A DNA stretch of 8,789 nt, from positions 1-8,789 of the IMG/VR virus record IMGVR_UViG_2778261162_000002. One strand, given 5' to 3'. The stretch comes from a virus (lineage: Duplodnaviria > Heunggongvirae > Uroviricota > Caudoviricetes). A program made the translations under genes and the position numbers. Each line of letters begins with the position of its first letter. Within the stretch, counting starts at the first letter, position 1. Under the pieces are notes generated by a model, which saw only the letters and a program-made list of their open reading frames with translations, ran no database searches and had not been told where the DNA came from. Below, piece after piece: positions 3,530 through 4,449 of this stretch.

Positions 3530-4087
3530 TTATGTAAATCTTATTAATAAAAAACTTATCAGGAAGATAATGAAGGACCAAGCCCCAAAAAGCATTGCTT
3601 CGGAACCTTTCTGTATTACGGCTACTTTTTCTTTGTGAACTTCATCAAGTTTATCAATGAAGTCAGTGTAACTACTTGCAAATGAACTCATTGAGTTTTG
3701 TCGCGGGTTACCCATAAAAAAGTCGATAATACTTGCATCGGTTGCCGGTCTCATACCTTCACGAGGTTGCATTGCACTAAAAACAAATCCCCATGAAATA
3801 AGAAAAAAGACAAAAAACAGAGCCAGTGACAACCAGCATAGAACCCTTGGGGGAGTAATTTCTGATACAAAAATATAGCTATCCCAATAGCGAACTATCA
3901 ACATAGAAATAGTAAGTATGACGTTGATTGAACCGAAAATTTTAGTCGCTTTATCCTCTAACCTACGTAACGATGTTAGTGCAAACTCATATTGTTTTTG
4001 TTGATAATCAAAAACAAATTTCGCCCGCTCAATCCATTCTTTCTGATCGTCGGTAGGGGCTACAGATTTAGGGTTACCTGTGCTCAA
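3530..4087 (-). CDS. Hypothetical integral membrane protein, 185 aa, three predicted TM helices (accessory cassette gene 2)
   Basis: The ORF begins at TTG (4087-4085), preceded by AAGAGAG about 7 nt upstream, with no in-frame ATG until about codon 62. The TTG overlaps the TGA of the upstream secreted-protein gene (minus strand TTGA). Hydrophobic segments at about residues 49-65 (IFGSINVILTISMLIV), 82-103 (VLCWLSLALFFVFFLISWGFVF) and 164-182 (AMLFGAWSFIIFLISFLLI), with a charged N-terminal region and a central ~55-aa loop. Markedly AT-rich. Confidence 0.6.
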   Translation of the reverse strand: MSTGNPKSVAPTDDQKEWIERAKFVFDYQQKQYEFALTSLRRLEDKATKIFGSINVILTISMLIVRYWDSYIFVSEITPPRVLCWLSLALFFVFFLISWGFVFSAMQPREGMRPATDASIIDFFMGNPRQNSMSSFASSYTDFIDKLDEVHKEKVAVIQKGSEAMLFGAWSFIIFLISFLLIRFT

Positions 4088-4449
4088 TTAGAAACTCTCT
4101 TACAGTCATAAGTCGCATACTGACGCGGCGCGTCCATACTGGCTTGCAACCACTGGGCGTTGAGAATGGCTTTACCGTTACGCTTGATGTATTCCAGCCC
4201 TACCCAACGGCCGGGCTGGTTGGTTGCAACCGTCCATTCCATCTTCAGATTTTGATAATCTTCCTTTTCTTTCAGAAAGGTCATTTTCTGGTTTTCAGGC
4301 TTTGCACCGTTAATGTGCATCAAACCATCGTTCCCTGCGGTCAGACGAAAAGGCCCACACTGAGTGTCCGCTAAAGCAGACGAAGCACCAACAAAAGCTA
4401 AAGCTAAAGCTAAAGCTACGCCGCAAATAACATTGCTGATTTTTGTCAT
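4084..4449 (-). CDS. Hypothetical secreted/periplasmic protein with N-terminal signal peptide, 121 aa (accessory cassette gene 1)
   Basis: I place the start at ATG 4449-4447, one nt after the hub gene TAA (4453-4451), with AGGT 5 nt upstream, rather than at the track's upstream TTG at 4509, which would overlap the hub gene. The N-terminus MTKISNVICGVALALALAFVGASSALA|DTQ is a classic signal peptidase I signal (K n-region, Ala/Leu h-region, ALA cleavage motif) with no lipobox. The mature ~94-aa protein has two Cys (C31, C116) placed to form a disulfide. Confidence 0.65.
   Translation of the reverse strand: MTKISNVICGVALALALAFVGASSALADTQCGPFRLTAGNDGLMHINGAKPENQKMTFLKEKEDYQNLKMEWTVATNQPGRWVGLEYIKRNGKAILNAQWLQASMDAPRQYATYDCKRVSN
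4394..4417. repeat. Perfect hexanucleotide tandem repeat (aaagct)x4 inside the signal-peptide coding region
   Basis: Plus 4394-4417 is aaagct aaagct aaagct aaagct, encoding the ALALALA core of the signal peptide h-region on the minus strand. Confidence 0.6.

Follow-up and report, generated by a model that had tools for sequence, protein, structure and literature searches.

We propose that a small gene lodged between the baseplate hub and central spike genes of an Escherichia coli prophage very probably encodes an exported, non-structural accessory protein, and that this position in the tail operon appears, across related phages, to conserve an exported protein and not one fold. The gene lies at positions 4084-4449, on the minus strand, of an 8,789-nucleotide stretch of viral DNA (IMG/VR record IMGVR_UViG_2778261162_000002, positions 1 to 8,789), the whole of which we call the window. 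The window is the tail module of an E. coli prophage and is 99.6% identical to prophages of the uropathogenic E. coli (UPEC) strains UPEC 26-1 and UPEC957C and of the blood isolate AF20. The function that we tentatively favour for the protein is superinfection exclusion or the protection of the phage's own progeny. The features of the hub junction and of the small gene are as follows.

4451-5515, minus strand: baseplate hub gene, 354 residues (PHROG 196 'baseplate hub', E 1.7e-82; Pfam E217_GP41)
4453-4451, minus strand: hub stop codon TAA, adjoining the small gene
4447-4453, minus strand: junction TAA-C-ATG, made up of the stop, a single C at 4450 and the ATG at 4449-4447
4084-4449, minus strand: small gene for the putative exported protein, 121 residues plus TGA (4086-4084), PHROG 3443
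4369-4449, minus strand: predicted signal peptide, residues 1-27 (MTKISNVICGVALALALAFVGASSALA), with signal peptidase I cleavage predicted after Ala27
4393-4416, minus strand: hexanucleotide repeat, GCTTTA three times and then GCTTTT, encoding ALALA of the signal-peptide core
4087-4368, minus strand: mature domain, residues 28-121 (94 residues), predicted to be an eight-stranded up-and-down beta-barrel
4357-4359 and 4102-4104, minus strand: codons of Cys31 and Cys116, respectively

Comparative sequence evidence indicates that the small gene is real and not a chance open reading frame (ORF). Its product matches PHROG 3443 (E 1.3e-46; residues 13-120 against profile positions 8-114 of 115), homologues from a sequence search fall into 112 protein clusters at 90% identity, both cysteines of the mature chain (Cys31 and Cys116) are invariant, and pairwise ratios of nonsynonymous to synonymous divergence (dN/dS) of 0.07-0.20 speak for purifying selection. 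The hosts of the clusters are Escherichia, Salmonella, Klebsiella, Serratia, Yersinia, Pantoea, Citrobacter, Enterobacter, Cedecea and Atlantibacter, and the family is narrow, with 58 clusters at 50% identity in a profile search of 1.84 billion representatives. The E. coli AF20 protein, 98% identical and shorter by two signal-peptide residues, carries the Prokaryotic Genome Annotation Pipeline (PGAP) name 'STY1065/STY2022 family phage-derived protein'. This name presumably comes from a rule of another type, since NCBIfam release 20 gave no hidden Markov model match for the small protein. The sequence family is therefore already catalogued, under both PHROG 3443 and the PGAP name, with no function assigned to it.

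The start codon lies at the junction with the hub. On the minus strand the two genes read ...GTA CAG GTA TAA C ATG ACA AAA..., and the 121-residue product is MTKISNVICGVALALALAFVGASSALA/DTQC...YDCKRVSN, the slash marking the predicted cleavage. An earlier, sequence-only reading of the window had placed the start one nucleotide past the hub TAA and had considered translational coupling to the hub gene possible. The TAAcATG arrangement is indeed what the minus strand holds, and the possibility of coupling gains from the fact that the tight spacing is kept in about 150 related loci; over the 147 loci measured, the distance from the hub stop to the start was mostly -8 to +13 nucleotides and usually -4, -1, 0, +1 or +12. 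The frame can be extended upstream to a TTG at 4509, giving 141 residues, and the same reading had named translation from this TTG as a point that would speak against secretion. The TTG was ruled out as a start because most homologous contexts offer no upstream in-frame start at all (69 of 104 distinct contexts). The longer version is thus not conserved, and this, together with the post-hub start position kept in the 147 loci, supports the ATG at 4449. One small length difference does occur within the gene: the repeat (GCTTTA)3 is polymorphic, so that the product has 121 residues in the window versus 119 in the 99.6% identical E. coli genomes. This repeat in the signal-peptide core accounts for the six-nucleotide difference from the sister E. 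coli prophages, seen in DNA match lengths of 1395 versus 1401 nucleotides and in the N-termini of one such prophage (L005) and the window.

The N-terminus has the layout of a signal peptide. In the window protein Lys3 is the sole lysine ahead of a hydrophobic core, and A-L-A occupies positions -3 to -1 before Asp28; a charged n-region, a hydrophobic h-region and small residues at -3 and -1, as expected of a substrate of Sec and signal peptidase I, are thus all present. In its Kyte-Doolittle 9-residue maximum over the first 35 residues, 2.91, the protein ranks first among the products of the window's 11 genes. From the 147 loci we scored 84 distinct N-termini, having set aside lipoprotein fusions and evident mis-starts. 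One to three Lys or Arg stood at the start of 79 of the 84, the first 15 positions were free of acidic residues in 82, the median hydrophobic-core maximum was 2.81, and a (-3,-1) cleavage site lay 1-8 residues ahead of the invariant Cys in 83. The n/h/c layout as a whole was kept in 83 of the 84, though the sequence before the invariant Cys drifts freely. A conserved layout with freely varying sequence is what a signal peptide would leave behind, and therefore we read this region as a signal peptide and not as a structural N-terminus. The mature chain of 94 residues has two cysteines, Cys31 and Cys116, the third (Cys9) lying within the signal peptide. The earlier description of a signal peptidase I-type signal peptide followed by a mature chain of about 94 residues with two cysteines is therefore well founded as far as sequence goes, both traits being conserved among the homologues, and export of the protein to the periplasm is all but certain.

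The window protein has no lipobox, as ...SSALA/DTQC places the Cys at +4. Lipoboxes are found only in two fusion relatives, P0114 (292 residues, LSGC) and P0131 (265 residues, LVSC), which begin with a lipobox, carry the small-protein domain at the C-terminus and occupy the same position after the hub. Fusion lipoproteins of this kind, with an N-terminal domain of about 190 residues and then the barrel, are encoded at L088 (6001-6879) and also at L089, L090, L094 and L106, and the same type of N-domain occurs within a 374-residue lipoprotein at L126. The N-domain of the fusion lipoproteins had no match in Pfam or among annotated PHROGs.

The position of the gene was followed in two ways. In 87 loci retrieved via similarity to the small protein or to the DNA, the gene lies directly after the hub and before the spike without exception (87/87). 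A scan centred on the hub and limited to one genome per species gave 78 loci, and the small gene stands at the hub stop in 63 of them. Among the other 15, hub and spike adjoin directly in six, one contig (L128) ends at the hub, and eight carry an unrelated protein predicted to be exported. The six direct junctions belong to some of the most divergent hubs (41-50% identity), and hub and spike are likewise adjacent in Acinetobacter phage Ab105-1phi. The alternative occupants include lipoproteins of 246-379 residues and signal-peptide proteins of 80-182 residues, with three consecutive secreted ORFs at one locus, an alternative secreted protein in Hafnia phage yong1 and a signal-peptide protein on the opposite strand in Burkholderia phage BgManors32. 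None of the alternative occupants matched a Pfam family or a PHROG of known function. They are found at these loci:

L097, L101, L112, L121, L152 and L153: unrelated, predicted exported occupants of the slot
L170, 4122-4532: unrelated, predicted exported occupant of the slot
L171, 3993-4451, minus strand: unrelated, predicted exported occupant of the slot

The direct junctions and the replacement by unrelated exported proteins lead us to conclude that the tail works without the small gene. What the position appears to conserve, judging from these gene contents, is an exported protein and not a single fold, and the small gene itself appears as a lineage-wide, operon-embedded gene and not as a sporadic moron. 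Two observations from individual genomes may be added here. Pantoea stewartii ATCC 8199 (NZ_CP046558.1) holds six diverged copies of the tail module (L091, L115, L129, L146, L147 and L155), with the small gene in five of the six and missing from L155. An assembly labelled Chryseobacterium sp. 18061 (CACSKA010000001.1; L122) contains a typical enterobacterial module, the small gene included, whose hub is 63% identical; the assembly may be mislabelled or contaminated.

The small protein also evolves out of step with the tail. The structural tail proteins co-vary closely, with Spearman coefficients of 0.7-0.9 on pairwise distances (the last 100 residues of the hub excepted), whereas the small protein correlates with them at only 0.27-0.53. 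It is the most divergent of the proteins compared, at a mean pairwise distance of 0.24 versus 0.12-0.23. Near-identical hubs (dN 0.02, dS 0.2) adjoin small genes that differ at dN 0.22 and dS 1.24, which means that recombination has swapped old alleles, the breakpoint lying at the junction of the two genes. Positive selection was ruled out as the source of this diversity, because pairwise dN/dS is well below 1; the diversity is that of recombined old alleles. A further sign of allelic turnover comes from Serratia aquatilis (NZ_CP173186.1; L130, 4592-7245), where five tandem paralogues of the small gene follow one hub, one of them frameshifted. Each paralogue has its own signal peptide, three have near-identical C-terminal halves and differing N-terminal strands, and an insertion sequence transposase follows the array. 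Allele shuffling and a paralogue array together make up a pattern that, in sequence terms, would be typical of specificity or immunity genes. The sequence-only reading had called the protein a host-cell-directed factor and no part of the baseplate, a suggestion that fits well with the loss and replacement of the gene in the slot and with its weak co-variation with structural proteins; it is the function itself that we infer.

An AlphaFold2 model (mean predicted local distance difference test score 85, and 91-96 over residues 31-100) gives an all-beta, up-and-down fold of eight strands. Cys31 falls in the first strand of the barrel and Cys116 in the last, and since both are invariant, a disulfide closing the barrel is plausible; in the model, Cys31 and Cys116 would probably staple the first and last strands together. 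Foldseek returned no match with E below 0.001 from the PDB or BFVD, no sequence relative of the small protein was found in the PDB, and 49 family members gave no Pfam match at E <=1. The MliC/PliC profile PF09864 matched neither the window protein (E <=0.1) nor the 49 members (E <=1), and MliC/PliC, tried as the closest structural neighbours, were not recovered as such. A tie to periplasmic inhibitor families, which had been put forward earlier as pure speculation, was not borne out, as no connection with MliC/PliC, Ivy or Spackle emerged in sequence or fold.

Gene calls together with Pfam and PHROG profile matches place all genes of the window on the minus strand. The remainder of the operon is laid out as follows.

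8436-6427, minus strand: tape measure, with a C-terminal SLT domain
6427-5825, minus strand: Dit-like protein
5823-5518, minus strand: Pam3-gp18-type plug
3530-4087, minus strand: cargo protein of 185 residues with predicted membrane-spanning segments (PHROG 23273 and 18554, neither with an assigned function)
3309-3521, minus strand: ORF of 70 residues in the same low-G+C cargo, annotated by PGAP in an identical prophage
3281-3298, minus strand: strong terminator-like hairpin, GACCCGC-TTCG-GCGGGTT and then a run of T, at the end of the cargo and shortly ahead of the spike gene, from a consensus scan only
2626-3264, minus strand: central spike, gpV-like, 212 residues, the downstream boundary of the slot (Pfam PF18352, E 2.4e-41, plus Apex motif)
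Downstream of the spike, minus strand: sheath initiator, baseplate J and wedge

The G+C content is 52-60% in the tail genes, 45-48% in the small gene and 36-39% in the next two ORFs. The stretch from the small gene to the spike varies from one phage to another: it is nothing more than about 70 nucleotides at L044, holds the 185-residue protein and the 70-residue ORF in the window, and has other contents elsewhere. In E. coli sister prophages it carries either an opposite-strand DUF4236 protein or a Phd/YefM-Doc toxin-antitoxin pair (L006, 2788-3078; L007, 2624-3444). As the small gene is constant and the stretch that follows it is variable, the true cargo hotspot lies just downstream of the small gene, and this hotspot sits inside the baseplate operon. 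The TTG start of the 185-residue protein overlaps the stop of the small gene (ATTGA). This predicted membrane protein is not conserved at the position in other phages, its homologues form 18 unannotated clusters, and the 70-residue ORF is found only together with it. A PF18967 tag precomputed on one homologue of the 185-residue protein was not reproduced in 14 members at E <=1, and neither the protein nor the product of the 70-residue ORF had a match in PADLOC-DB 2.0. The hallmarks of a moron, namely its own promoter and terminator, a deviating G+C content and a sporadic distribution, fit the 185-residue gene, the 70-residue ORF and the hairpin better than they fit the small gene.

Taken together, we suggest the following working model. 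Translation of the small gene would take place on the late mRNA of the tail operon, in direct coupling with that of the baseplate hub, and the product would be exported through Sec as a soluble periplasmic barrel of 94 residues and eight strands that forms no part of the virion. The slot between hub and spike would be reserved for exported proteins in a lineage of temperate enterobacterial myophages with a SEN34/Brunovirus-like tail module. The small protein would act on the envelope of the cell that produces it, at a stage after adsorption, so that contractile-tail phages, the phage's own released progeny included, would be kept from productive or wasteful penetration. We infer the periplasmic location, the disulfide, the late expression and the exclusion function alike. 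A more far-reaching version, which we regard as speculative and rather unlikely, holds that the hub-spike junction is a dedicated slot for a new class of periplasmic anti-penetration factors, of which the STY1065-type barrel is the commonest; these would intercept the tip of a contracting tail (spike, plug or emerging tape measure) or an entry factor of the host in the periplasm or inner membrane, and their old alleles would be kept and shuffled under frequency-dependent selection and sometimes gathered in tandem arrays.

Several results weigh against an exclusion function. The alleles of the small protein follow none of the candidate phage partners that we compared. Similarity of the small proteins is unrelated to that of the fibre C-termini (Spearman 0.05 over 48 loci) or the spike C-termini (Spearman 0.05), and the coefficients for segments of the tape measure are 0.1-0.2. 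Clusters of the small protein mix with both SLT and NNPGN tape measures, so no link to the type of lytic domain is seen. Only the hub correlates moderately, which is expected of linkage, the two genes being physically adjacent. If the target is a protein, it could be a component of the host envelope or a part of the tail tip, conserved in either case. PADLOC-DB 2.0 held no match for the small protein, and our literature searches yielded no experimental work on the PHROG 3443 family; those on STY1065/STY2022, on the virion composition of SEN34 and on exported proteins of tail operons returned nothing specific. The modelled fold, a small barrel of generic type that gave no diagnostic match, therefore does not identify the function. 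A promoter of its own was also tried and rejected, as the sole upstream site (4581-4553, in the 3' end of the hub gene, 9/12 matches) is no better than the shuffled expectation; the consensus scan found 5 sites versus 3.1 expected. Lysogen protection in the classical sense would require that the repressed prophage express the gene. Purely late expression would protect a cell only late in infection, or would act only after lysis.

The main rival to exclusion is a helper of lysis or envelope remodelling, a late periplasmic protein that binds a component of the host envelope, be it peptidoglycan, an outer-membrane protein or an enzyme of the periplasm, and aids or times release, with no blocking of other phages. 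The conserved coupling to a late tail gene implies the late expression that such a helper would need, the protein is predicted to be exported, and hosts of very different lifestyles fit a phage-centred role in the lytic cycle. However, the gene sits in the tail module, away from the lysis genes, its product bears no likeness to holins, spanins, endolysin regulators or any Pfam or PHROG lysis family, and deep allelic diversity and tandem paralogues would be unexpected in a housekeeping helper; on balance we consider this reading unlikely. The hydrophobic N-terminus could also remain uncleaved, making the protein a part of the baseplate or tail tip, or a pilot protein that inserts into the membrane. 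Its conserved place between hub and spike and its tight coupling to the hub are what one would expect of a virion or assembly component, and yet the AxA sites and signal-peptide layout are kept while the sequence drifts, the fusion relatives are lipoproteins, functional-looking related tail modules lack the gene or hold unrelated exported proteins, co-variation with structural proteins is poor, and the invariant Cys pair would be expected in an oxidising compartment. We therefore consider a virion component very improbable.

The other alternatives keep the protein in the envelope of the host and differ in what it does there. A Spackle-like inhibitor of the murein-degrading domain in the tape measures of incoming related phages has a clear model in T4 Spackle, a periplasmic, disulfide-bonded, helical-bundle inhibitor of the gp5 tail lysozyme (PMC7677548). 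The small protein resembles Spackle in its size, its predicted cleaved periplasmic signal, its probable disulfide and a predicted action on penetration by contractile tails; the tape measure of the window does end in an SLT lytic transglycosylase domain, and the modelled barrel generally resembles the beta-rich lysozyme inhibitors of bacteria, sharing with MliC/PliC a periplasmic eight-stranded form of about 100 residues with cysteines. Unlike the helical Spackle, it is modelled as a beta-barrel, and it shows no link to the lytic-domain type of the tail, so that we think such an inhibitor improbable. Receptor masking of the Cor or Llp type, in which the protein would bind the periplasmic face of the outer-membrane receptor of the phage's own fibres and inactivate it, finds its precedent in T5 Llp, which faces the periplasm, has its two ends linked by a disulfide and is encoded next to the gene for the receptor-binding protein pb5 (PMC9586334). 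Like Llp and the Cor proteins of T1/phi80-like phages, the small protein is small, would face the periplasm and is encoded among tail or receptor-binding genes, and its lipoprotein relatives would be found on the inner side of the outer membrane. In contrast to these lipoproteins, the window protein (ALA/DTQC) has no lipobox and no match to them in sequence or fold, and its alleles do not follow the fibre tip: tip likeness averages 0.14 among pairs with small proteins at least 95% identical and 0.14 among other pairs, in line with the rho of 0.05 for the fibre C-terminus. Moreover, Llp is an early gene, whereas the small gene is coupled to a late one. Receptor masking is accordingly a distinctly improbable function here. 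A factor of lysogenic conversion or fitness, comparable to lambda Lom or Bor and produced by the prophage to the benefit of the bacterium in its animal or plant host, would agree with the occurrence of the prophage in uropathogenic isolates and with the known role of tail-region morons such as lom (PMC3594210). However, the single nucleotide between hub and small gene leaves no room for a promoter, the small gene is not directly followed by a terminator, and carriage by gut, plant, insect and environmental Enterobacterales alike suggests a phage-centred role; a conversion factor therefore also strikes us as improbable.

In connection with the tape measure, it should be mentioned that its C-terminal lytic domain is modular. 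Near-identical tape measures end either in SLT (window, 6427-6950) or in an unrelated domain with the ERNNNPGN motif (L120, 2090-2609), and among 114 distinct combinations 66 have SLT, 36 'NNPGN' and 12 neither.

Envelope-targeted accessory proteins encoded among tail genes have clear precedents. HK97 gp15, an inner-membrane exclusion protein whose gene lies within the tail operon, was the first moron to be described, and its exclusion of an incoming phage depends on that phage's tail region (PMC3594210). The small gene resembles that of gp15 as an envelope-targeted accessory gene embedded among tail genes. The difference is that the gp15 gene has a promoter and a terminator to itself, encodes a membrane protein and occurs sporadically among relatives, whereas the small protein is predicted to be soluble and exported, is coupled to the hub and is found in most members of the lineage. 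Likewise, the definition of a moron (Juhala 2000; Cumby 2012) does not describe it well, given the 1-nucleotide gap, the lack of its own terminator, its presence in 63/78 loci and a G+C content that is only mildly low, at 45-48% versus 52-55%. Compared with classical morons, what is new is the coupling to a late structural gene, the lineage-wide presence and a slot that can be filled by other exported proteins. The protection of progeny has its own framework in the 'anti-Kronos' concept (bioRxiv 10.1101/2024.03.05.583538).

Exclusion proteins that act at the envelope are among the least catalogued factors in phage-phage and phage-host interactions, because they are small, shuffle fast and have no recognisable domains. 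If the small protein serves in the lytic cycle instead, the phage would be unusual among tailed phages in exporting a late product to the periplasm as a matter of routine. If a block to penetration or a protection of progeny is the true role of this family and of the other occupants of the slot, a simple genomic rule would follow for finding more such proteins, namely an exported ORF between hub and spike. Such a role would also explain part of the unexplained failures of phages to plate on E. coli, Klebsiella, Salmonella and Serratia lysogens, an explanation that would be relevant to host range in phage therapy.

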